A stretch of 64,000 nucleotides of DNA from Bdellovibrionales bacterium. GTDB lineage: Bacteria; Bdellovibrionota; Bdellovibrionia; Bdellovibrionales; UBA1609. Of this stretch, positions 806 to 33,780 are shown piece by piece. A program made the translations under genes and the position numbers. How positions within the stretch are numbered: position 1 is the stretch's first letter; each line of letters opens with the position of its first letter. Where the stretch lies: contig OZ241456.1 in NCBI GenBank assembly GCA_965200875.1, positions 334,588-398,587 on the forward strand. Direction: 5' to 3'. The notes under the pieces are model-generated. The model saw nothing but the letters and a program-made list of their open reading frames with translations. It was not told the origin of the DNA and did no database searches.

Positions 806-1603
806 TTACCAAGGTTGGTAACTTCCTTTTTTTAAAGTCCATATTGCTGCAATATGAAATAGCAGTAACCCCAATAAGGAGATCCAAAAGGCCACATTAA
901 TAGGCACATCTGAAAGCCCCAGCACTCCATAACGTACTCCGTTTATAAAATAAAGCAGTGGGTTAAAGTAAGACACTTTAATCCAAAAAGGGCTTAAGTT
1001 TTCCAGAGAAAAAAACACTCCCCCAAGGGAAATCAAAGGCAAAATAATAAACCCGCCGATAGCACTTACATGGTCAAAGCTTTTAGCCCAAAACGCCACT
1101 GCGATTCCAAGCTTGGTAAAAGCCAGTCCTCCAATGACACAAAAAAGCACAAAGTAAAAAGGATGAGCAGGGACCAACCAAGCACTTTCGTGGAAATAGT
1201 AAAAAAGCTCTCCCGAAAGCAAAACAACCAATCCCACAACCAATCCCCGGAATAACCCTCCTAGGGACATGGCCCATATAATTTGCTGGATTGTCAGCGG
1301 GGAAGCTTTAATATCCACGATTTCCCCGGTAAATTTCATACCTAATAAAGAGCTGGAACCATTTTGATAGCTGTTGTTCATACATCCCATCATCACCAAT
1401 CCGGGTATTAAAAACTCCAAATAAGATAACTCCTCTAACACCTGAATATTTTTTCCAAGGCTGACTCCAAAAATAAGCAGGTAAATGAAAGAATTAATGG
1501 CAGGAATAAAAATAGTTTGAGCGAGTACTTTGATGAATCTTTGCACTTCCCGGTAAAGCAATATGAAAAAAGGTGTCCATACCAGATCTTGTTTTTTATT
1601 CAT
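806..1603 (-). CDS. ABC-2 type transporter permease
   Basis: 265-aa polytopic membrane protein with about 6 hydrophobic segments. It lies 5 nt downstream of an ABC ATPase gene, the typical ABC-2 exporter pairing. Confidence 0.8.
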   Translation of the reverse strand: MNKKQDLVWTPFFILLYREVQRFIKVLAQTIFIPAINSFIYLLIFGVSLGKNIQVLEELSYLEFLIPGLVMMGCMNNSYQNGSSSLLGMKFTGEIVDIKASPLTIQQIIWAMSLGGLFRGLVVGLVVLLSGELFYYFHESAWLVPAHPFYFVLFCVIGGLAFTKLGIAVAFWAKSFDHVSAIGGFIILPLISLGGVFFSLENLSPFWIKVSYFNPLLYFINGVRYGVLGLSDVPINVAFWISLLGLLLFHIAAIWTLKKGSYQPW

Positions 1604-1608
1604 ATTTT

Positions 1609-2517
1609 TTAAATATCTCCTTTGTTTAGCACATATTTAAAAGCTTCTTCCAAAGTGCCTTCCCGGATTTTCATATCCAATATGTTATGGCTTTGAAAAT
1701 TTACTTCAGAAAAAAATTGTCCAATTTCTAGGGAATAGGGTACACGAAATTCCAAAATATTATCGTGGCTTTTTACAAGAGTGGGATGCACGCACTTCAT
1801 CTTGTTTTTCAGGGTGATTGTTAGATGACGGGAGGTAAGTTTTTGGACCAGTTTTTTTGTGTTTCCCTGTTTTTGGATCTGTCCTTTATGGATAATGGCC
1901 ACTCGATCACAAAGTTGTTCCGCTTCTTCCAGATAGTGTGTGGTGAATAAAATGGCCACTCCAGTTTTTTTTAATTGTAACACCTGCTCCCAAATGGAGT
2001 ATCTTAATTCCACATCCACACCGGCTGTAGGTTCATCCAGCAAGAGTAATTTTGGGGAATGCCCCAGAGCTTTGGCGATCATTAATCGACGCTTCATTCC
2101 TCCGCTGAGTTGACGAACTTTTTTATGTCTGTGTTCCCATAGTTCCAGCTGTTTCATTAATTCCGGGATTTTTTTGTTGTGGGAAAAACCATAGTAACCA
2201 GAATGAAAATTTAACACCTCAGACACATTAAAGTATCCGTGGGTAATAATCTCCTGTGGCACCACACCTGTTATGGATTTAACAGCTCTTTCGTTTTGTA
2301 TAATATTCATATCATTTATGGTGATTTTGCCTTTAGTGGATTTTTCCAAAGTGGTGATCATGGAGATGATGGAAGTTTTACCAGCTCCATTTGGGCCAAG
2401 AAGACCAAACACCTCTCCTGAGTGCACTTCAAAAGACACCTGATTGACAGCACAAAAATCGCCATAGTTTTTTACCAAGTTTTCAATTTTTAAAACAGCC
2501 ATAATTTTTTGCTCCAA
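1609..2517 (-). CDS. ABC transporter ATP-binding protein
   Basis: Walker A GPNGAGKTS, ABC signature LSGGMKRR, Walker B LLLLDEPT, H-loop TTHYLEE. Confidence 0.9.
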   Translation of the reverse strand: MEQKIMAVLKIENLVKNYGDFCAVNQVSFEVHSGEVFGLLGPNGAGKTSIISMITTLEKSTKGKITINDMNIIQNERAVKSITGVVPQEIITHGYFNVSEVLNFHSGYYGFSHNKKIPELMKQLELWEHRHKKVRQLSGGMKRRLMIAKALGHSPKLLLLDEPTAGVDVELRYSIWEQVLQLKKTGVAILFTTHYLEEAEQLCDRVAIIHKGQIQKQGNTKKLVQKLTSRHLTITLKNKMKCVHPTLVKSHDNILEFRVPYSLEIGQFFSEVNFQSHNILDMKIREGTLEEAFKYVLNKGDI

Positions 2518-13832: not shown

Positions 13833-14453
13833 TTATGAAACGAATCCTAATACAGCAAATCCAACGATTATCAGACTTCCTAGAATACCCACTAAATTCA
13901 ATGTGAGGTCTTTTTTTAAGAGAGACATATCTTTTTTGATTTCCAAACGCAAAAGTTCTATGTCTTTTTTTACATCAGCGATATCTTTTTTGGTTTCGTT
14001 GCGCAGAAGTTCTATGTCTTTTTTGGTTTCGTTGCGCAGAAGTTCTATGTCTTTTTTTACATCAGCGATATCTTTTTTGGTTTCGTTGCGCAGAAGTTCT
14101 ATGTCTTTTTTGGTTTCGTTGCGCAGAAGTTCTATGTCTTTTTTTACATCAGCGATATCTTTTTTGGTTTCGTTGCGCAGAAGTTCTATGTCTTTTTTGG
14201 TTTCGTTGCGCAGAAGTTCTATGTCTTTTTTTACATACTCAATTTCTTTTTTTACATCAGCGATATCTTTTTTGGTTTCGTTGCGCAGAAGTTCTATGTC
14301 TTTTTTTACATACTCAATTTCTTTTTTTACATCAGCGATGTCTTTTTTAGTGGCCATTACATTTTCCTGAAAATAGATCAGGGTATTGGCTTGTTGTTCT
14401 GTGAAGCCGTTTTCTTTAAGATATTCCACTTGTTTGATTAAAGCAGTAGCCAT
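13833..14453 (-). CDS. DUF1640/Bdr-like coiled-coil tandem-repeat protein, C-terminal membrane anchor
   Basis: N-terminus ...YLKENGFTEQQANTLIYFQENVMATKKDI resembles the DUF1640 head. Then 7- and 11-aa units (KKDIADV, KKDIELLRNET, KKEIEYV) iterate. Ends in a hydrophobic tail LVGILGSLIIVGFAVLGFVS. Confidence 0.6.
   Translation of the reverse strand: MATALIKQVEYLKENGFTEQQANTLIYFQENVMATKKDIADVKKEIEYVKKDIELLRNETKKDIADVKKEIEYVKKDIELLRNETKKDIELLRNETKKDIADVKKDIELLRNETKKDIELLRNETKKDIADVKKDIELLRNETKKDIELLRNETKKDIADVKKDIELLRLEIKKDMSLLKKDLTLNLVGILGSLIIVGFAVLGFVS
13940..14345. repeat. coding tandem repeat, 87-nt higher-order unit (21+33+33 nt) about 3 copies plus variants
   Basis: catcagcgatatcttttttggtttcgttgcgcagaagttctatgtcttttttggtttcgttgcgcagaagttctatgtcttttttta recurs essentially unchanged. 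It lies inside CDS 13833-14453. Confidence 0.85.
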
Positions 14454-14554: not shown

Positions 14555-14699
14555 AATGTTAAAAATAATTAGCTTGAAAAACCCTTAACACTTGATAAGA
14601 GGTGGAAAGTGGTATAGCTTTTTAATCAGTAGGGTGAGTAAAGTGATCATTTGTAAACTTAGGGGTAAAATATTAAGCTCATATAAGGAGGAATGGCAA

Positions 14700-15014
14700 G
14701 TGTCCACAGAAAATCATACAGAAAACCATATAGTATCTTTTTCTCTTTACACAAAGGTGTTGTCCACTTTACTGGTTTTGACAGTTTTAACTGTGTTGGT
14801 TGCTCAAATGGATTTTGGCGTATTTAATGTTCTGATTGCAATGGGCATTGCTAGTGTCAAAGCGGTTTTGGTTTTGCTTTTTTTTATGCACCTGAAATAC
14901 GACAATAAACTTTTCCCGGTGATTTTTTTTACCGGAGTATTTTTTTTGGCAATTTTATTTTTATTTTGTGAGTTTGATATTATCACTCGCATTCCTGAAT
15001 TTTCTGTATTGTAG
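14700..15014 (+). CDS. cytochrome c oxidase subunit IV family protein (COX4_pro-like), orphan
   Basis: Three-TM small protein. Motif ...VLTVLTVLVA...NVLIAMGIASVKAVLVLLFFMHLKYD is typical of prokaryotic subunit IV. I place the start at GTG 14700, 7 nt after AAGGAGG. The ORF-track start at 14592 has no RBS. No other oxidase subunits are nearby. Confidence 0.65.
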   Translation: MSTENHTENHIVSFSLYTKVLSTLLVLTVLTVLVAQMDFGVFNVLIAMGIASVKAVLVLLFFMHLKYDNKLFPVIFFTGVFFLAILFLFCEFDIITRIPEFSVL

Positions 15015-15061: not shown

Positions 15062-17512
15062 CTAATTTCGATACTGGCAAGTTCGGCTTATTGGGTCATA
15101 ATAAGTACCGGGTGGGCAACAGGTGTTGTGTGTGCGATCATACACAGATCCGTTTGGACAGCAAATATTGCCTGTGCCATGATTATAGTTCCATCCGTTT
15201 GGACAACAGGTGCCGTTTGAGAAATTATATCCGTCTGGACAACATGTTCTACCTCCTACGGAATAATATCCGTTTCTGCAACAACCAGAATCAATAGAAT
15301 GTCCCAAAGCACAAGCCCTATTGTTTTTAACACATAATACTGTTCCTGCCGGAGTGTTTATATATTCGCCGGCTCTGGCAACCTTGCGAATATGTCCAGG
15401 CATACAGCAAGCTCCACTGGAACTTGGACAACAATTTCCATTACGGAGGTGTGGAGCGGTGCGAGGACATCGCTCACATCTATCACCATAGCGTAAATGA
15501 TTTCTCGGACAGAACCAGCACTTATTGTCGTATTCGTGTTGTCGCCCCCTCGGACAACGGTTGCAACTGTTGTTATAGTGCCAGTATCTGTTACGCGGAC
15601 ACTGGCGACAGTATCCGAAATAATGGTGTCTTCTGTCACGATGGCAACGGTTGCATTTCCCATCGTAAAAATACTCAGCTCTGCAACTATGACATCCTCC
15701 ATTGTGTTCATATCGTCTATACACCGGACAACGGTTGCAACTTCCCCAGTAATAATGTTGCCCCCTCTGGCAAGTGTTGCATCTTCCATTGTAGTAGTGC
15801 GGAACATGTCTTGCACATTTATTACACCGGCCATTATAATAATACCTTTCATTGAGGGGACAGCGGTTGCAGGTTCCCCAGTAGTAATGTTGCCCGCTCG
15901 GGCACCGGTTACAAGTCCCGCTATAATAATGTTGTCCGCGTGGGCATTGGTTACACCGACCTCCATAATAATACTTCCTAGAGCTTGGGCAACGATGGCA
16001 GGCCCCGCTATAGTAATGTTGCCCTCGTGGACAGCGATTACATCTGTTATTATAGTAATGTCTTTGGTAGCTTGGACATTTGTTGCAGGTTCCTCCATAG
16101 TAATACTTCCTTGAGCTGTTGCATCGGTTACACCGGCCATTATAATAATATCTTTCATTGAGGGGGCAACGGTTGCAAGTTCCACTATAGTAATGTTGCC
16201 CGCTCGGACATTTGTTGCAGGTTCCATCATCGTATTTATAGGGTGTGGAGCTTGGGCATTCGTGGCAACTCCCGTCGTAGTAATGCTCTCCACTGGGACA
16301 TTTATTGCATACATTACTGTGGTAGTGTGGAGTCCCCTCAGGGCATCTGTTACACACATTACTATAGTGGTGTGGAGTCCCCTCAGGGCATTTGTTGCAT
16401 TGGCCATCGTAAAAATGAATTTTATTGGCTGGGCAGGTGTTACAGCTCCCATTATAGTAATGTTCTCCACTTGGGCACATATTGCAGGTTCCACTATAGT
16501 AATGTTGCCCGCTCGGACATTGGTTACATGTTTGATTGTGATTGTAGTAATAGGGTTTATCTGCTGGACAAGCACATTCCTGATTTGGAGGGGTTCCTCT
16601 GTGCCGAGTTTCCCCTACGCATACACATTCCGCGCTTTCTTGATCCCACCTCTGCCTTGTTTCACAAACCCCCGCACATTCCAGTTCCCCGGAGGATTTT
16701 ACACTTACCACAATTTGCCCCTCTGGACATGCCATATTCTCTGAACTACTGGCATGAATCAAAGCCGAACATTGGATATTATCACCACCTGTATAAGCAG
16801 ATGGTGAATCAGAACAAGGATCATAATCAACACAGTCAGGTGTTCCATCGGGCTTAAATCCACGAAAATGTTTATAAGGCCCTTCGTCCTCACAACTCAC
16901 ACTCTGGAAGCCCTTTCCGGTATGACAATCTAGGGGAACACACTTATCTTCAGTGCCATCACATGCCTCATTCGAACACTTGTAATCCAACACACAGGTT
17001 TGATGATAACAACCGGTTTTATCTGTGGCGGAACAACCCCCACCCCCTAAAGTTTCATTACCCCTAAGATAAGGCTTTGTGTAAAACACAATTAAAAGTC
17101 GCTTTGGGTGATCCTTATCAATATTCACTTCCTTTTTCAGCTCAATCCCCTGAATGGAAATAAAATCATCTTGTGTAAACTGTCCTATGGATGTAAGGGG
17201 ATCTGAGAGATTTCCTTCATCATCCAGCTCATGCAACAAACCACTTTGGTGTTCTTTGTCGCTCTCCGAAAGCCGGGCAGGCTTTGTTATATCCTTGCAA
17301 TTAATTTCATTACTTAAAAACTCTTTTGTTCTGTGAGATAAAACCTGCTCTGCCAGATTGGTTCTGATTACCTGCTCGGACTTTACCGATATTCCTATTA
17401 TTTTTAATGTGCTCAAGCTTATAGTGAGGCCCAGAGTGCCAGCCACTAAAATGCCAGCTAGTCCTCCAAATCCTCTTTTTCCTCTTAAAAAACTTGTGTA
17501 ATACATTTTCAT
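15062..17512 (-). CDS. type IV (minor-)pilin-like protein with 25 CxxC modules and vicinal-Cys C-terminal region
   Basis: N-terminus GKRG|FGGLAGILVAGTLGLTISL has prepilin-like Gly-Phe plus a hydrophobic helix but no Glu5. Its core is homologous to the upstream gene. Residues 329-693 hold 25 modules, C-x2-C-P-x-G-x-H-Y-Y-x-G-x, with period 13-16 aa. Residues 694-816 hold 7 CC pairs (CCPxG(Y/W)...). By my count there are 86 Cys in 816 aa. Confidence 0.7.
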   Translation of the reverse strand: MKMYYTSFLRGKRGFGGLAGILVAGTLGLTISLSTLKIIGISVKSEQVIRTNLAEQVLSHRTKEFLSNEINCKDITKPARLSESDKEHQSGLLHELDDEGNLSDPLTSIGQFTQDDFISIQGIELKKEVNIDKDHPKRLLIVFYTKPYLRGNETLGGGGCSATDKTGCYHQTCVLDYKCSNEACDGTEDKCVPLDCHTGKGFQSVSCEDEGPYKHFRGFKPDGTPDCVDYDPCSDSPSAYTGGDNIQCSALIHASSSENMACPEGQIVVSVKSSGELECAGVCETRQRWDQESAECVCVGETRHRGTPPNQECACPADKPYYYNHNQTCNQCPSGQHYYSGTCNMCPSGEHYYNGSCNTCPANKIHFYDGQCNKCPEGTPHHYSNVCNRCPEGTPHYHSNVCNKCPSGEHYYDGSCHECPSSTPYKYDDGTCNKCPSGQHYYSGTCNRCPLNERYYYNGRCNRCNSSRKYYYGGTCNKCPSYQRHYYNNRCNRCPRGQHYYSGACHRCPSSRKYYYGGRCNQCPRGQHYYSGTCNRCPSGQHYYWGTCNRCPLNERYYYNGRCNKCARHVPHYYNGRCNTCQRGQHYYWGSCNRCPVYRRYEHNGGCHSCRAEYFYDGKCNRCHRDRRHHYFGYCRQCPRNRYWHYNNSCNRCPRGRQHEYDNKCWFCPRNHLRYGDRCERCPRTAPHLRNGNCCPSSSGACCMPGHIRKVARAGEYINTPAGTVLCVKNNRACALGHSIDSGCCRNGYYSVGGRTCCPDGYNFSNGTCCPNGWNYNHGTGNICCPNGSVYDRTHNTCCPPGTYYDPISRTCQYRN
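15434..16528. repeat. coding tandem array of 42-45-nt CxxC modules (25 units, diverged)
   Basis: Periodicity read from the translated protein. Several units are near-identical (CNRCPLNERYYYNGR twice; CPSGQHYYSGTCN three times). Stop codons are depleted in several frames on both strands. Confidence 0.8.
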
Positions 17513-17518
17513 GTTAAC

Positions 17519-18682
17519 CTATTTAGGTATGTCAGGTTCAGGTACGCAAACTATCGGTGCTCCTCCCGGTTCAGGGAGAGGACATTCACATTTTTTAGTA
17601 TCTGGATTATACCTTGTAAGGCCTGTACAGATTATTGGTTCATCAGGTTCATCAGGTTCAGGGGTTGGTTCATCAGGTTCAGGGTTTGGATCATCAGGTT
17701 CAGGCGGAGGCACAATACATTTTAAACTTATTTTGTTCCAAATTTTTCCAGTCGGGCATTTACAGGTCACCCCGGTCCAGATTTTGTCATAAGGACAATC
17801 ACAATTTGACCCAATCCTTCCCCCGGAACAGATACGGCTACAAATCGGATCCCCGTCTTTGTCAAAACCCTGTAAAAACTCGTCAGCATTCGGACAACTT
17901 AAATTCCCAGTTTCAGGAATCGCCGGAAATGCCCGGCAATCTTCTTCACCGTCTGCTTTTCTGCCAACATAAACTTGACCGGGAGGGCAGGTTGGTTTTT
18001 CCTGGCATCTTGGGTTTCCATCTCCGTCAAATCCGCTTAAGTATTGTTCATCTGAACAAGACACACTCAAACTATCTCCTATACTTTTGCAAGCTGATAA
18101 CGAACAGCTGGTGATTTTATTATTATCGCCGGGGTCATGCACGATTTCCAAATCACAGGATTGGTGATAACAGCCTTTGTTGTCAGTGGTTGAACATTCT
18201 CCATCTCCCAAGGTTTTATAAGAACCTAGTTGAGGCTTGCTGTAATAAACAGCAAAAGTATATTTGTCCGAACCTTCGTTTGACAGTTCAAGGCTTTTTA
18301 CAGATATCAGATCGCCTTTAAAACCTCCGGTGGCAAGATAAAGTATGTCGTCTGAAGTGTTGGGACTTGGAGGGGTATTGTTTCCCTCAGTCTTCATATA
18401 TTTACCGCCGGTGAGTTTGCCTTTTTTATGGGTGCGGTCAGAGAGCCTAGAAGGATCTAAATTCCATTTGCAATCCTCCTCATTGCTTAACATTCGCCGA
18501 ATGGTGATATACAAATCCTGCTCCTTTTGCTGAGTGCTGGACACCTGAGCAGAGCTTATGGTTATTTGAGAGAGCTTTAAAACGGCTAGACCTAAAACAA
18601 GTCCAACCCCGGTGGCTACAAATACTTCCACCAGACCAAAACCTTTATTGCCAAAGAGAATTTTTTTCATACATGTGGTCAT
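17519..18682 (-). CDS. type IV pilin-like protein (class III signal peptide) with Cys-rich globular region and Pro/Asp/Glu-rich tail
   Basis: MKKILFGNKG|FGLVEVFVATGVGLVLGLAVLKL has Gly-1, Phe+1, Glu+5 and a hydrophobic helix. C-terminal PPPEPDDPNPEPDEPTPEPDEPDEP linker, then CxC/CP motifs. A 6-nt gap separates it from the downstream paralog. Confidence 0.75.
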   Translation of the reverse strand: MTTCMKKILFGNKGFGLVEVFVATGVGLVLGLAVLKLSQITISSAQVSSTQQKEQDLYITIRRMLSNEEDCKWNLDPSRLSDRTHKKGKLTGGKYMKTEGNNTPPSPNTSDDILYLATGGFKGDLISVKSLELSNEGSDKYTFAVYYSKPQLGSYKTLGDGECSTTDNKGCYHQSCDLEIVHDPGDNNKITSCSLSACKSIGDSLSVSCSDEQYLSGFDGDGNPRCQEKPTCPPGQVYVGRKADGEEDCRAFPAIPETGNLSCPNADEFLQGFDKDGDPICSRICSGGRIGSNCDCPYDKIWTGVTCKCPTGKIWNKISLKCIVPPPEPDDPNPEPDEPTPEPDEPDEPIICTGLTRYNPDTKKCECPLPEPGGAPIVCVPEPDIPK

Positions 18683-20747: not shown

Positions 20748-21299
20748 CTATTCTTTTTTCGAAAACCATACTCTCATATCTTCTTTTAAATCTTTAAAAC
20801 CACTTGTCATATCAATTCTCAAACCATCAATTTTTTTATTTGTATCAGTGATATGATTACTCAAATCTTTTTTCGAATCATCAATTTTTTTATTTGTATC
20901 AATTCTCAAATCATCAATTTTTTTATTTGTGTCAATTCTCAAATCATCAATTTTTTTATTTGTATCAATGATATAATTACTCAAATCTTTTTTCGAATCA
21001 TCAATTTTTTTATTTGTGTCAATTCTCGAATCATCAATTTTTTTATTTGTATCAGTGATATAATTACTCAAATCTTTTTTCGAATCATCAATTTTTTTAT
21101 TTGTATCAGTGATATAATTACTCAAATCTTTTTTCGAATCATCAATTTTTTTATTTGTATCAGTGATATGATTACTCAAATCTTTTCGGATATGTCTCAT
21201 TTCAATGGCAAGATAAACCAAGATAACTATCCCTATCACAGAATATACGGGGACTTGGTCGCCTAAATAATTAAAAAAAAGAGGTGCAAAATTACTCAT
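20748..21299 (-). CDS. tandem-repeat (TDTNKKIDD) coiled-coil protein with N-terminal membrane anchor
   Basis: N-terminal TM helix VYSVIGIVILVYLAIEM. Then 18-aa units (KKDLSNYITDTNKKIDDS) and 11-aa units (RIDTNKKIDDL) iterate. The KID-type repeats are reminiscent of Borrelia Bdr proteins. Confidence 0.6.
   Translation of the reverse strand: MSNFAPLFFNYLGDQVPVYSVIGIVILVYLAIEMRHIRKDLSNHITDTNKKIDDSKKDLSNYITDTNKKIDDSKKDLSNYITDTNKKIDDSRIDTNKKIDDSKKDLSNYIIDTNKKIDDLRIDTNKKIDDLRIDTNKKIDDSKKDLSNHITDTNKKIDGLRIDMTSGFKDLKEDMRVWFSKKE
20812..21185. repeat. coding tandem repeat, 54-nt and 33-nt units
   Basis: atcatcaatttttttatttgtatcagtgatat(a/g)attactcaaatcttttttcga and atcatcaatttttttatttgtgtcaattctc(a/g)a recur. 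They lie inside CDS 20748-21299. Confidence 0.85.
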
Positions 21300-30166: not shown

Positions 30167-30190
30167 TAACAGTGCGTTAACACCTTTTTC
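30147..30190 (-). repeat. dispersed repeat, copy 3 (orientation B)
   Basis: The plus strand reads TTTATAAAAAAATCAAGTAATAACAGTGCGTTAACACCTTTTTC. It matches the reverse complement of copy 1 at all but about 3 positions. Confidence 0.8.
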
Positions 30191-33100
30191 ACGCCCGACT
30201 AGTGAGTTGGCAAAAGAGGTTCATTAGTTTCATATTGGGGATGGATCGAATATGAGTGTCTGCCACATTTTTGGAGCCTACGATAAGCGAAAGGCACCGG
30301 GCGCGGGATAAAGCCACATTCAGACGATTTTTATTGAGCAAAAAAGAAATGCCTCTTGGTGCGTCCTGAATAGTGGAAGCGCAAAGGGAAAGAATGCAAA
30401 CGGGTGCTTCCTGACCTTGAAATTTATCCACAGAAGCTACACGGGCGGAATCCTGAACTAACACCTTCTTTATGCAAGCAACTTGTACATTATAAGGAGC
30501 GACAATTAAAATATCCTTGGTGGTTATGGGCTTGGTTTTTCCTTCCCTGTTGATCCACTTTGCCCTTAAAAGCTCTTTATAAAGAGCACCAATCACTTGA
30601 GCCTCCTCCATTGAGGAATGAGTGTTTCCTGAATGTTCCACAGGTATAAAACAGATTCCCGCTTCTGGGATCTTCAGCTTTAAACCAGTTTGGCTTAAAC
30701 TCTCCGGGAGAAGAACTTTTTGCTGACTCGTGGTGGGATGATTTGTAAGCTCTCCCTTATAAAAATAATCCGAGACAAATTGGCAAATCCCCTCGTGCAT
30801 ACGATAAGAAACTGGCAAAAATACCCCTTTGTCCTTGGAAATAGTGGTACTTCCTTCAGTGTAGTAAGTGAGAGCGGAAAGTCCTGACTCTCCGGGATGA
30901 ACAGCCTGTTGAGGCTGATCCAATTGATTTTGATCCCCAATGAGGATAAGGTTTTTGCCCGCACGCGCGCCAGCCACCAGATTGGCGAGACTCACTTGGG
31001 AAGCTTCATCCACAAACAGGTAATCATAAGAGGATTCCTGTTCTTCCCTTGAGAAAAAAAAGGTCGTACCACCCACCACCCGGGCACTTTGTTTGACTTT
31101 GTTGCCATTAACCAGCTCCACCGGCAGGTTTTGAAAAAAAAGTTTTTCTTCCTCTGATTCTTTTGAAGATTTTACTTTTTGGCATTGAAAAAAAAATTTT
31201 TCTTTATTTTGTTCGAAAATGGTTTTTAAAACATTTGAAATGGCTTTATGGGAATTAGCTGTCACCCCCACTCTTTTGCCATTTTTTACCAAGTGTAAAA
31301 TCATATAAGCCACTGTGTAGGTTTTGCCTGTACCGGGAGGGCCTTGAATGCAAAAAACAGAGTCATTTAAATTTAAAGCATGCGTGGATATTTTTTCTAT
31401 AAGATTTTCCGAGTTTAAAACAAGCGGGCCTTTATGGTTTGGCAGGCTTGGTTTTTCCCTCAATAAAAGATCATGAATACATTTTTTTAAACCGAAATGA
31501 GAGGAGGAAGAGGAAAATTCATTAGCTGTTTTCAACAAGGATCTAAAAATATTTACTTTGTAGTAATCATTTTTTTCTGGTCCTAAGGTGAAAAAGCCAT
31601 GCGCAGGAATATTGTTTTCTTTAGGAGCTTTAAGCCATAAAATTCCATTAATTAAATCCAGTTTCAAAAGGGTGTGGGTATTGCGCGTATTATTATTATT
31701 TTTATCTTCATTTTTCGAAAGCACAATCACTTTGTCTTCTTCTGTGAAGCCAATTTCCTGTTCTCTTTCAAACTGTATTTTACAGGACTCTTCGTTAAGT
31801 TCCAAGAGACGGCAGAAGGCAATGGTGTTTCTATCCTCCAGCAGTTGCTCTTCATTCATGTCTCGGCGGGAAAAGTAATCCCACCACCCGGGTTTTTCCT
31901 CTCTTATATGAAACATCAGTAAATCCGAAAGAAGTCTGGTAAGATAATTTTTTTTGTCAACCAAGGAAACAGGTTTTGGCAAAATGGGTTTTTCTCCCTT
32001 TAAGGGCAAATGTTTTGAAATGCTCATCTCTTCCGGGTTGCTTTGGCTTAAAAGCTCTTTGGCTTTTTCTTCGCATTTTCCACGAATGCCCTCCCGATGA
32101 TATTCCTGATTGTTTTCCTCTTCTTTGTGAGGAATGTATTTAATTCTGTGTGTTTCCTGCTGTTTCCATAGAAACTGACAAAGTTTTTTTGTGGAGACGC
32201 AGTCATCCCGGTTATAAGCATTTATTTTTTTTAAAAAAGGAGAGTTTTCTCTATTGTCATCAGTATTCAGGAAATGAAAAAACAGCACAGCAGACTCCCC
32301 GCCAGTTTTTACTTCTGTATTTCTTTTCTTGTAATAAAGGTTTTCCACTTCTTTTAAGGAATAAGATAATACACCTATGCGAAGGCTTTGAATCACTATT
32401 CTGTGTAAATCCACAAATATGTGATTTCTTAAGAGGTTATCCACTTCTTGCTCTCTTGTGCCGTATTTTCCCATGAGTCTTTTTATTGTGGAGGTTTCAT
32501 AGTGTCCGTAATGGTAAATGTGCATACCGGGGTTTTCCCTCCATCTGTGATATACCCAATCCATCCATTTTTGAAACGCTTTGACTTCTTCCTGTTCGCT
32601 TAAAGCCCAGAAACAGATAAATCCGGGCTGTTCCTTTACAGCATTGCCGTATAGATATTCCAGACCTTCCTCTCCTAGGAGAGGGTAGCCTTCCATATCA
32701 AAAAACACATCTGCTGGGTGTGAGGGAGGGAGTGTCTCCAATCCCTTTCTTTCTCCGGTGTGAGGCAGAACTTCGAAGTCAGGTCTGTTTTTTCCTTTGG
32801 ATTTTAACTGTATTTTTGCCTGTTCTTTTAAAGTTTCGAAAGTGGCTATAGGTATATTTTTTACTTTATCTCCTGAGTATAAAGCCAGCTCAGAAAGTTT
32901 TTTTATTCCCGCTCTTTTTAAAAGAGTGGAATGAGCGGAGCGAATGCCGGCTGTTAAGGAAATATCATCTAGCTGATGTAGTCTTTTTTTGGCAAAGAGG
33001 CTCCAGTCCCGGTGCTGAGCGGTTTTGTCCGGTATGGGTAGTGAGTCCTTAGAAAAATGGGAATGGTAGTGTAAAAATTCTTCTTTTAAAAAATTGTAAA

Positions 33101-33671
33101 AAGAGAAAAAATCTTTGGTTTTAAAAAAATGCTCTTTTGAAGATTTTGTGACAATCACAAACTCAGGAGGCAATACTCCCTGAATAAATTGCAACATATC
33201 ACAATAACAGCAAAGCTGAATCAAAGCCGTGGGTTTTGGATGTCTTGCGATTTTAAAATCATAAGGAATATAGTAATGATTTCCCAAGATGGAAGGGCCT
33301 TTTTGCTTGACCAAAAGATCAACATACCCAAATATTTTTTCTTTTTCAATAGCGGCTTGGTAAATTTTTTCTTCACCGTCTTTCATGGCTTTTCGGGTTT
33401 TCTGAAGGGCTTTTATATGTGTTTCTTTTTCCACTCTAAAAATAAATTGGTCTTTTTCCATTTTATTGATAAGATTTTCTTCGTGTTTATTTCCCAGATC
33501 TTTTATAAGCTCATAAAGTGGATCGGAGGGATCGCGATGCACCCCAAGATCTTTTAGGGTTTCCTTGGAGGCAATTTTTTCAAAATGATCCATATAAGAG
33601 GAAAATTCAGATTCAAAAAACTGAACCAGATCTGATGGGGAAAAAGTGATTTTATTAGGAAAAATATTCAT
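30189..33671 (-). CDS. fusion protein: Cas4/RecB-like PD-(D/E)xK nuclease + RNase H-like 3'-5' exonuclease (TM0106 family) + SF1 (Upf1/DNA2-like) helicase
   Basis: N-terminus: GYVDLLV...PYDFKIAR...QLCCYCDML (D...(D/E)xK...QxxxY). Middle: DVFFDMEGYP...HYGHYE...Y..DDC (DEDD-type, YprB-like). C-terminus: GPPGTGKT, DEASQV, VDKFQGQE, NVALSRAR. The ORF track extends to 33767, but homolog-style N-terminus MNIFPNKITFSPSDL begins at 33671. The extra 5' region holds repeat copy 5 and the aroB promoter zone. Confidence 0.75.
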   Translation of the reverse strand: MNIFPNKITFSPSDLVQFFESEFSSYMDHFEKIASKETLKDLGVHRDPSDPLYELIKDLGNKHEENLINKMEKDQFIFRVEKETHIKALQKTRKAMKDGEEKIYQAAIEKEKIFGYVDLLVKQKGPSILGNHYYIPYDFKIARHPKPTALIQLCCYCDMLQFIQGVLPPEFVIVTKSSKEHFFKTKDFFSFYNFLKEEFLHYHSHFSKDSLPIPDKTAQHRDWSLFAKKRLHQLDDISLTAGIRSAHSTLLKRAGIKKLSELALYSGDKVKNIPIATFETLKEQAKIQLKSKGKNRPDFEVLPHTGERKGLETLPPSHPADVFFDMEGYPLLGEEGLEYLYGNAVKEQPGFICFWALSEQEEVKAFQKWMDWVYHRWRENPGMHIYHYGHYETSTIKRLMGKYGTREQEVDNLLRNHIFVDLHRIVIQSLRIGVLSYSLKEVENLYYKKRNTEVKTGGESAVLFFHFLNTDDNRENSPFLKKINAYNRDDCVSTKKLCQFLWKQQETHRIKYIPHKEEENNQEYHREGIRGKCEEKAKELLSQSNPEEMSISKHLPLKGEKPILPKPVSLVDKKNYLTRLLSDLLMFHIREEKPGWWDYFSRRDMNEEQLLEDRNTIAFCRLLELNEESCKIQFEREQEIGFTEEDKVIVLSKNEDKNNNNTRNTHTLLKLDLINGILWLKAPKENNIPAHGFFTLGPEKNDYYKVNIFRSLLKTANEFSSSSSHFGLKKCIHDLLLREKPSLPNHKGPLVLNSENLIEKISTHALNLNDSVFCIQGPPGTGKTYTVAYMILHLVKNGKRVGVTANSHKAISNVLKTIFEQNKEKFFFQCQKVKSSKESEEEKLFFQNLPVELVNGNKVKQSARVVGGTTFFFSREEQESSYDYLFVDEASQVSLANLVAGARAGKNLILIGDQNQLDQPQQAVHPGESGLSALTYYTEGSTTISKDKGVFLPVSYRMHEGICQFVSDYFYKGELTNHPTTSQQKVLLPESLSQTGLKLKIPEAGICFIPVEHSGNTHSSMEEAQVIGALYKELLRAKWINREGKTKPITTKDILIVAPYNVQVACIKKVLVQDSARVASVDKFQGQEAPVCILSLCASTIQDAPRGISFLLNKNRLNVALSRARCLSLIVGSKNVADTHIRSIPNMKLMNLFCQLTSRA

Positions 33672-33702
33672 AAAGCGGACTGTAACAAATAAACAATCGT
33701 TC

Positions 33703-33748
33703 GGGAAGAAGCTGTTAACATATTGTTTATAATTTGATTTTTTTATAA
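33703..33748 (+). repeat. dispersed repeat, copy 5 (orientation A), 33 nt upstream of aroB
   Basis: GGGAAGAAGCTGTTAACATATTGTTTATAATTTGATTTTTTTATAA. Confidence 0.75.
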
Positions 33749-33780
33749 TTTTCTGGAAACATAGCAAGGTTTTACAACGA

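Follow-up and report, generated by a model that had tools for sequence, protein, structure and literature searches.

A 64,000-nucleotide (nt) stretch of Bdellovibrionales DNA (contig OZ241456.1; the whole stretch analysed is called the window here) carries two adjacent genes for proteins of 387 and 816 amino acids (aa), which are probably modular minor pilins, a pair whose role would be to present a disulfide-stapled rod on a type IVa pilus tip. Each protein appears to consist of three parts: a basic leader ending in Gly, a first helix (alpha-1) with a head of about 170 aa that would serve as the carrier, and a fast-evolving, cysteine-rich tail that would serve as the effector. An earlier sequence-only reading had proposed a pilus-displayed tip or minor-pilin adhesin of a new type. 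The first part is still the best reading and has gained a family-wide signal and linkage to pil genes in two relatives. The second has been dropped, since modular pilins are known already; nor does the pair stand alone, as its family comprises about 450 clusters at the 50% identity level. The two open reading frames (ORFs), their leaders and the 6-nt gap between them were reproduced from the sequence.

The heads of the two proteins share 36-38% identity over about 180-200 aa (BLASTP, E 1.7e-25 to 3.5e-26). The conserved core described earlier is real, with SNE..CK, RLS, a Y(T/S)KP block and GCYHQ(S/T)C common to both. At the start of each protein, a basic leader of 14 aa has Gly as its last residue and gives way to Phe and at least 20 hydrophobic residues (MTTCMKKILFGNKG then FGLVEVFVATGVGLVLGLAVL in the 387-aa protein; MKMYYTSFLRGKRG then FGGLAGILVAGTLGL in the 816-aa protein). 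The same layout, with a terminal Gly and a hydrophobic stretch, is found across 128 family members. At the predicted cleavage site the 387-aa protein reads G|FGLVEV, with Glu at +5; no other ORF in the window shows a G-hydrophobic-x3-E signal. The 816-aa protein reads G|FGGLAGILV there and does not have this Glu.

Supporting a pilin origin, an exhaustive search with a profile of the head against representatives clustered at 50% identity recovered 447 of them with E<=1e-3, of which 245 reached E<=1e-10; lengths range from about 180 to 1300 aa. Most of their N-termini follow the pattern (K/R)G|F(S/G/T)L(I/V)E(V/T)LV, for example RGFSLIEVLV, KGFSLIEVLI and RGFTLVELLV. Pfam N_methyl (PF07963) matched 15 of 42 diverse heads at E<=0.01 (best E 2.4e-7), and TIGR02532 matched one of 35 full-length members. 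The top four PDB sequence matches of the head profile were TcpA (E 0.0096), two geopilin domain 1 chains and the CFA/III pilin, all aligning over alpha-1. AlphaFold2, given an alignment of 42 sequences, modelled the 387-aa head with a mean predicted local distance difference test score (pLDDT) of 92.1 and a predicted template modelling score (pTM) of 0.80. The model has a 50-residue helix (residues 12-61) followed by four main strands, and this predicted fold follows the pilin blueprint in outline. Membership of the head family in the type IV pilin superfamily is thus well supported at the sequence level, and the window proteins would belong to it by homology to the family, not by their own signature scores. 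The prepilin-type N-terminus and pilin-like layout proposed earlier are backed, for the family of both proteins, by the helix-then-beta model and the family-wide signal.

Recovery of the family depended on the search. A word-index search returned only about 15 relatives, and only three matches when the 42-sequence head alignment was used. Relatives were seen in ENA, NCBI and Logan assemblies, while scans of JGI metagenome contigs and IMG/VR gave none, and a genome-contig scan with head patterns also found no relative. Proteins and loci are given here by P and L numbers. The window's own 1.83-Mb contig encodes two more paralogs, P0003 (557 aa) and P0005 (728 aa). The UvrB encoded in the window shares 75-80% identity with that of three metagenome-assembled genomes (MAGs) labelled Bdellovibrionales bacterium and 59-63% with that of other Bdellovibrio MAGs; judging from these identities, the host is an uncultured member of the Bdellovibrionales, a predatory lineage.

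The tail of the 816-aa protein is its most distinctive part. The earlier cysteine tally was exact, with 86 Cys, 25 CxxC motifs and seven Cys-Cys pairs; the 387-aa protein has 22 Cys. The two proteins also differ in isoelectric point (4.8 for the acidic 387-aa protein, 8.5 for the 816-aa protein). The stretch aa 329-693 of the larger protein is an unbroken run of the 25 CxxC units, each 13-16 aa long with the consensus C-N-x-C-P-x-G-x-H-Y-Y-x-G-x, and the Pro is present in 20 of the 25 when read from the unit list. Tandem Repeats Finder detected a single 45-bp repeat of 1.9 copies in the underlying DNA. The units have diverged at this level and so point to an old coding repeat rather than to recent duplication or an assembly artefact.

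No named family was matched by this module in Pfam, NCBIfam or the PDB, in agreement with the sequence-only reading. Specifically, Pfam and NCBIfam gave no match to the tail, including the TIGR02232, GCC2_GCC3, furin-like, VSP and zinc-ribbon families, and phmmer found none among PDB sequences. The only match on the window proteins was to PF23091 (TNFR_ELAPOR1_6th), below threshold at 18.4 bits against a cut-off of 33.2. A precomputed Pfam match to PF27023 (6BHPP) is present on the same-genome paralog P0005, with a faint one on the L003 ortholog of the 816-aa protein; no description of the name 6BHPP was found in the literature. In the full-length AlphaFold2 model, which is of low overall confidence, every unit forms a short predicted beta-hairpin whose strands are xHYY and xCNx (pLDDT 64-88 for the units at 430-580, about 90 for residues 50-200). 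Foldseek of this model against the PDB returned nothing significant, the best matches being Meckelin, the CaSR cysteine-rich domain and 4-1BB, all of them extracellular disulfide-rich modules.

Heads and tails do not share the same closest relatives. For the 816-aa head, the nearest counterparts are in P0006 and the L003 ortholog (46-47% identity), whose tails are mostly made of CxC-type units with four CxxC each. Its tail is closest to that of P0005 (45%) and then P0002 (41%), the heads of which are only 27% and 34% identical to the 816-aa head. P0002 and P0003 combine a head (63-65%) and middle region (46%) like those of the 387-aa protein with HYY units. This discordance suggests that heads and tails have had separate histories, which would fit either module exchange or concerted evolution within a genome.

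Nuclease genes were also seen next to family members. YhgA-like/PDDEXK_2 genes adjoin them in L001 (8584..9660, minus strand), L086 (4534..5640, minus strand) and L087 (441..1181, minus strand), the L001 gene lying between two family copies with nearly identical heads. Small Hjc/DUF234-like nucleases neighbour family genes in L001, L085 and L086. A bolder proposal, which we regard as tentative and rather unlikely as a whole, is that the family forms an interchangeable repertoire of pilus-tip pilins, where a conserved head is recombined with hypervariable cassettes of disulfide-stapled hairpin rod. YhgA/Rpn-type and PD-(D/E)xK nucleases would possibly assist this exchange, and the cassettes would set the prey or surface range of the type IVa pilus.

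The glutamate at +5 (Glu5) needs separate consideration. The subunit that caps minor-pilin tip complexes lacks this residue, which is generally required for incorporation below the tip (PMC10191384). An automatic count found Glu at +5 in 82 of 128 complete N-termini, having chosen the wrong Gly in about 20 GGF-type and a few truncated starts that do carry Glu5; the corrected estimate is roughly 80% of the family. Most have F, L, I, V, M or Y at +1, and about 20 of the 128 have Gly at +5. Glu5 is consistently absent from a distinct clade of long proteins (GFVGGGLLG..., GFSLIGTL...). The closest relatives of the 816-aa protein (P0006, the 739-aa L003 ortholog, P0025, P0034 and P0042) read G|(F/L)G(L/I)AE at this point, from which the 816-aa N-terminus differs by a one-residue insertion and a Glu-to-Gly change. 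Since these orthologs keep Glu5, its loss in the 816-aa protein is lineage-specific and recent. The missing Glu5 had earlier been taken for a conserved trait of the GspK/PilX kind, which the orthologs contradict. Homology to GspK or PilX was rejected on this point and on the absence of Pfam, NCBIfam and structural matches. Given the long clade without Glu5 and the similar pattern of the L002 pair (below), a capping role for the 816-aa protein is nevertheless plausible.

Related loci connect the family to pilus genes. L001, on a 2.18-Mb ENA contig, contains in order pilB (MshEN and T2SSE domains), pilT, pilC (T2SSF), a histidine kinase gene and a sigma-54 response regulator gene. This pilB-pilT-pilC-pilS-pilR cluster is followed after 15 bp by a family gene for a 960-aa protein, then by the YhgA-like transposase gene on the opposite strand and the family gene P0009. 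Beyond P0009 lie bioB, an ABC-2 pair and the gene for a conventional pilin of 240 aa, which exceeds the N_methyl cut-off at 25.3 bits. Likewise, three tandem family genes in L084 (694, 383 and 583 aa) converge on a pilB-pilT-pilC-pilS-pilR-type cluster. The short-then-long arrangement seen in the window recurs in L003 and L002. In the L002 operon a conventional pilin of 207 aa comes first, then a family member of 332 aa that has Glu5 and one of 879 aa that does not, so that the pair mirrors that of the window. The conventional pilin beside the giants in L001, together with published major pilins of Bdellovibrionota of 170-204 aa (PMC11046646), argues that the giant proteins are accessory pilins and not the major subunit.

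L002 itself is a 26,989-bp ENA contig, ERZ25068400 ctg19506, which is marked circular and contains an 11.7-kb unit about 2.3 times over. This unit codes for the short and long family pair together with two conventional pilins, a resolvase, a coiled-coil protein and a Prim-Pol-like protein. The contig resembles a small mobile replicon with its own pilin set.

We propose that both proteins would be inserted in the inner membrane and cleaved by prepilin peptidase after Gly14, with their 22 and 86 cysteines forming disulfides in the periplasm. The alpha-1 helices would then bundle with other minor pilins into a complex that primes a type IVa pilus, and extension of the pilus would bring both proteins to the tip. 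The 816-aa protein, which has no Glu5, could be the capping subunit, with the acidic 387-aa partner sitting beneath it. Its tail would form a thin rod of 25 disulfide-stapled beta-hairpins with a Cys-Cys-rich end piece and act as an adhesin, plausibly in prey or surface recognition.

Several observations weigh against this minor-pilin reading. Neither window protein reached the N_methyl or TIGR02532 cut-off, a check that the sequence-only reading had itself suggested: the whole proteins gave no match, the isolated N-terminus of the 387-aa protein scored 13.3 bits against N_methyl (cut-off 21.2), and the 816-aa protein had no match. Foldseek of the head model against the PDB found no solved pilin (best match E 0.6), and hhalign of the head profile with a conventional pilin aligned only 18 N-terminal residues. 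The full-length model of the 816-aa protein has low global confidence (pLDDT 65, pTM 0.34). This protein has no exact entry in a collection of 5.8 billion protein sequences that does contain its 387-aa neighbour. Its capping role may be recent or absent, since its orthologs retain Glu5. As already noted in the sequence-only reading, the 64-kb window contains no pilus assembly gene (Pfam scan of the 46 larger ORFs), and pil genes adjoin only two of nine related loci, with L085, L086, L087 and L088 lying away from them. The 381-bp intergenic region preceding the 387-aa gene yielded no sigma-54 promoter, as it has no GG-N10-GC site with at least eight consensus matches.

Part of this evidence would suit the main rival account, which we consider unlikely. 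Here the two would be tethered to the membrane in the periplasm or at the surface, with the pilin-like helix serving solely for anchoring or export, and would never polymerise. They might then act as an envelope scaffold, or belong to a type II secretion-like pseudopilus as a part or a substrate. The missing pil genes in the window, the position of most related loci away from such genes and the lack of a structural match to solved pilins all fit an anchor, as does an 816-aa protein without the Glu5 that is generally needed below the tip (PMC10191384). However, most of the family keeps Gly-1, a hydrophobic +1 and Glu+5, a pattern that a plain anchor would hardly account for. At two loci, family genes are in tight linkage with pilB-pilT-pilC, and the presence of pilT indicates a retractile type IVa pilus and not type II secretion; one operon even combines family genes with conventional pilins. 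At the other extreme, the large pilins could be the major subunits of a separate thick type IV filament, which seems quite improbable. The complete G|F...E signal of the 387-aa protein would allow it, as would the L001 family gene directly after pilR, where pilA lies in the Myxococcus-type gene order. Yet the same L001 locus has a conventional pilin, known major pilins of Bdellovibrionota measure 170-204 aa (PMC11046646), and paralogs with very different tails occur within single genomes (at least seven in one contig, four in the window's genome). Tails of 200-640 aa on every subunit would also be hard to pack or to pass through the secretin.

A different question is what the cysteines do. The CxxC units may be zinc knuckles or ribbons, or another Cys/His/Tyr metal site, making the tail a metal-binding array instead of a disulfide-stapled adhesin; we judge this very improbable. 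Consistent with metal binding, 10-12 residues separate the CxxC pairs, 27 His and 48 Tyr occur in the 365 aa of the repeat region, and the relative P0003 weakly matches the double zinc ribbon family PF18912 (E 0.019). No significant zinc-ribbon family was matched on either window protein, however, and the weak resemblances go to extracellular disulfide-rich modules (Meckelin, CaSR, 4-1BB and the TNFR-like domain of ELAPOR1). The mature cysteine count, even in 101 of 128 family members, suits both readings and does not discriminate between them. Disulfides are more likely than zinc because the prepilin signal implies export, and a protein carrying it would fold in the oxidising periplasm.

Compared with known systems, the disulfide-stapled minor pilins proposed here come closest to modular pilins such as S. 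sanguinis PilB and PilC, CofB and ComZ, which likewise join a class III signal pilin module to a bulky C-terminal module and are predicted to be tip-exposed with an adhesive role (PMC8179133). In the window proteins a pilin-like head is clearly followed by a tail of 200-640 aa, and this tail has no signature elsewhere in the libraries searched. Modular pilins are widespread and come in 264 architectures; one example, of 860 residues, repeats a motif of unknown function 12 times (PMC8179133). Given this example, the size and repeat architecture of the window proteins are not unprecedented. They differ in having a head of a distinct family, missed by N_methyl, a tail made of a Cys-rich hairpin repeat and a diderm Bdellovibrionales host, and in that the family has several paralogs per genome with apparent tail exchange.

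Minor-pilin tip complexes offer a second comparison. GspI-J-K, PilH-I-J-K (FimU/PilV-W-X) with PilY1, and KilL-M-N are also encoded in small operons of pilin-like genes of rising size (PMC10191384, PMC12075869). Their largest subunit has a variable distal domain, predicted disulfides are numerous, their capping subunit is without Glu5, and paralogous sets occur in predatory bacteria. The KilLMN tips, which are paralogous and disulfide-rich, set the prey range of the Myxococcus Tad pilus, showing that pili of predatory bacteria can bear variable, disulfide-rich tips (PMC12075869). In contrast, the window proteins have no sequence or fold match to GspK, PilX or TadG, the window has two genes and not three or four, PilY1 was not seen nearby, and Glu5 has been lost in only part of the family. 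The family N-terminus is also of the N_methyl (type IVa/T2SS, type II secretion system) kind, with no TadE-family match.

The large major pilins of Myxococcota and Bdellovibrionota (170-204 aa in the latter, 208 aa for M. xanthus PilA; PMC11046646) share the broad lineage and pilus system, and some also carry extra cysteines. A family gene likewise follows pilR in one relative. The window proteins are, however, two to four times larger with hypervariable tails, and a conventional pilin coexists in the L001 locus. Extracellular cysteine-repeat modules (TNFR-like/ELAPOR1, furin-like, Giardia VSP CXXC and Myxococcus TIGR02232) similarly consist of short tandem units that are likely disulfide-stapled beta-hairpins, but the window tail matches only PF23091, below threshold, and has no significant Foldseek match. 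What differs here from known systems is the head family, the unnamed hairpin repeat, the paralog number, the head-tail mosaicism and the host lineage.

The features of the gene pair and its neighbours are listed in the table. The public gene call for the 387-aa protein (P0001) starts four codons later, at 18670 with MKKILF, and gives 383 aa. The PEPDEP-type linker reported earlier lies at aa 324-349 of this protein, with Cys motifs after it.

Table. Features of the pilin-like gene pair and neighbouring genes; coordinates are relative to the 64,000-nt window.
Feature	Position	Strand	Basis or content
Gene, 387-aa modular pilin-like protein	17519..18682	-	ORF; exact match P0001; head hidden Markov model (HMM) 192 bits, E 1e-58
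Leader MTTCMKKILFGNKG of 387-aa protein, Gly-1 end	18641..18682	-	Cleavage predicted before Phe+1; sub-threshold N_methyl, 13.3 bits; family G|F..E pattern
Head of 387-aa protein	18140..18640	-	Hydrophobic alpha-1 with Glu+5, then beta domain, four conserved Cys; AlphaFold2 and conserved columns
Middle region, 387-aa protein	17714..18139	-	Two C..(F/L)(L/V).GF..DG.P.C loops and CxC motifs; alignment, 46% identity to P0002/P0003 counterpart
C-terminus, 387-aa protein	17522..17713	-	Pro/Glu/Asp-rich linker VPPPEPDDPNPEPDEPTPEPDEPDEP (aa 324-349) and short Cys-containing end
DNA repeats in linker-encoding part of 387-aa gene	17637-17704		Repeats of 21 bp and 9 bp
Intergenic gap	17513..17518		6 nt, between 387-aa gene stop and downstream 816-aa gene start
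Gene, 816-aa modular pilin-like protein	15062..17512	-	ORF; head HMM E 1.5e-52
Leader MKMYYTSFLRGKRG of 816-aa protein, Gly-1 end	17471..17512	-	Followed by FGGLAGILV, without Glu+5
Head of 816-aa protein	16979..17470	-	46-47% identity to heads of P0006 and L003 ortholog
Middle Cys-rich region, 816-aa protein	16529..16978	-	GF..DG.P.C-type loops and CxC motifs
Repeat array, 816-aa protein	15434..16528	-	25 tandem units, each a predicted short beta-hairpin
C-terminal region, 816-aa protein	15065..15433	-	Seven Cys-Cys pairs (CCP.G..Y.. units); pLDDT 68-85, residues 750-816
ABC ATPase and ABC-2 permease pair	806..2517	-	69-76% identity to L001 pair at 15193..16913
Predicted lipoprotein, 457 aa	10881..12254	+	Lipobox-like ..SSC
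Predicted lipoprotein, 457 aa	12325..13698	+	Lipobox-like ..FSC
Coiled-coil protein	13833..14453	-	Matches PF07798 (CCDC90-like), E 1e-10
caa3-type cytochrome oxidase subunit IV	14592..15014	+	TIGR02229, E 2e-25; converges on 816-aa gene
Predicted lipoprotein, 388 aa	19064..20230	+	Lipobox-like ..LSC
Coiled-coil protein	20748..21299	-	33% identical to coiled-coil protein at 13833..14453
1192-aa protein	30189..33767	-	RNase H-like domain (PF13482) and superfamily 1 helicase (AAA_11/AAA_12)

The surroundings are those of an ordinary chromosome (Pfam scan of the 46 larger ORFs), including pstSCAB-phoU-phoBR, pdxJ, aroB, uvrB, topA, metG, rpoN, purine synthesis genes, a thiolase gene and the ABC-2 transporter pair. 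This pair, related to the one in L001, may be the counterpart of the pilH/pilI transporter found in Myxococcus-type pil loci. The pilin pair is bracketed by two Cys-free proteins with short tandem coiled-coil repeats and one transmembrane segment each. It is also flanked by three predicted lipoproteins with 14-17 Cys each and no family match. The two of 457 aa are distant paralogs (23% identity over 137 aa), and the very acidic one of 388 aa is divergently transcribed from the 387-aa pilin gene. No cytochrome oxidase match was found among the scanned ORFs neighbouring the caa3 subunit IV gene. An invertible or phase-variable promoter was considered and rejected, as the repeats found were only A/T-rich and of low complexity.

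These findings have implications for both the family and its hosts. Many members of the head family, including both window proteins, are missed at the standard N_methyl cut-off, and surveys of modular pilins consequently undercount. For the hairpin repeat C-N-x-C-P-x-G-x-H-Y-Y, the libraries searched gave no relative, named or solved; such a repeat might make a scaffold that is compact and very stable. Bdellovibrio needs type IV pili to enter prey (PMC3818213, PMC4237445). The giant pilins, which form a lineage-wide family and have tails that change fast, are concrete candidates for pilus-tip recognition in this predatory lineage, and parallel the interchangeable tips of the Myxococcus Kil pilus (PMC12075869).

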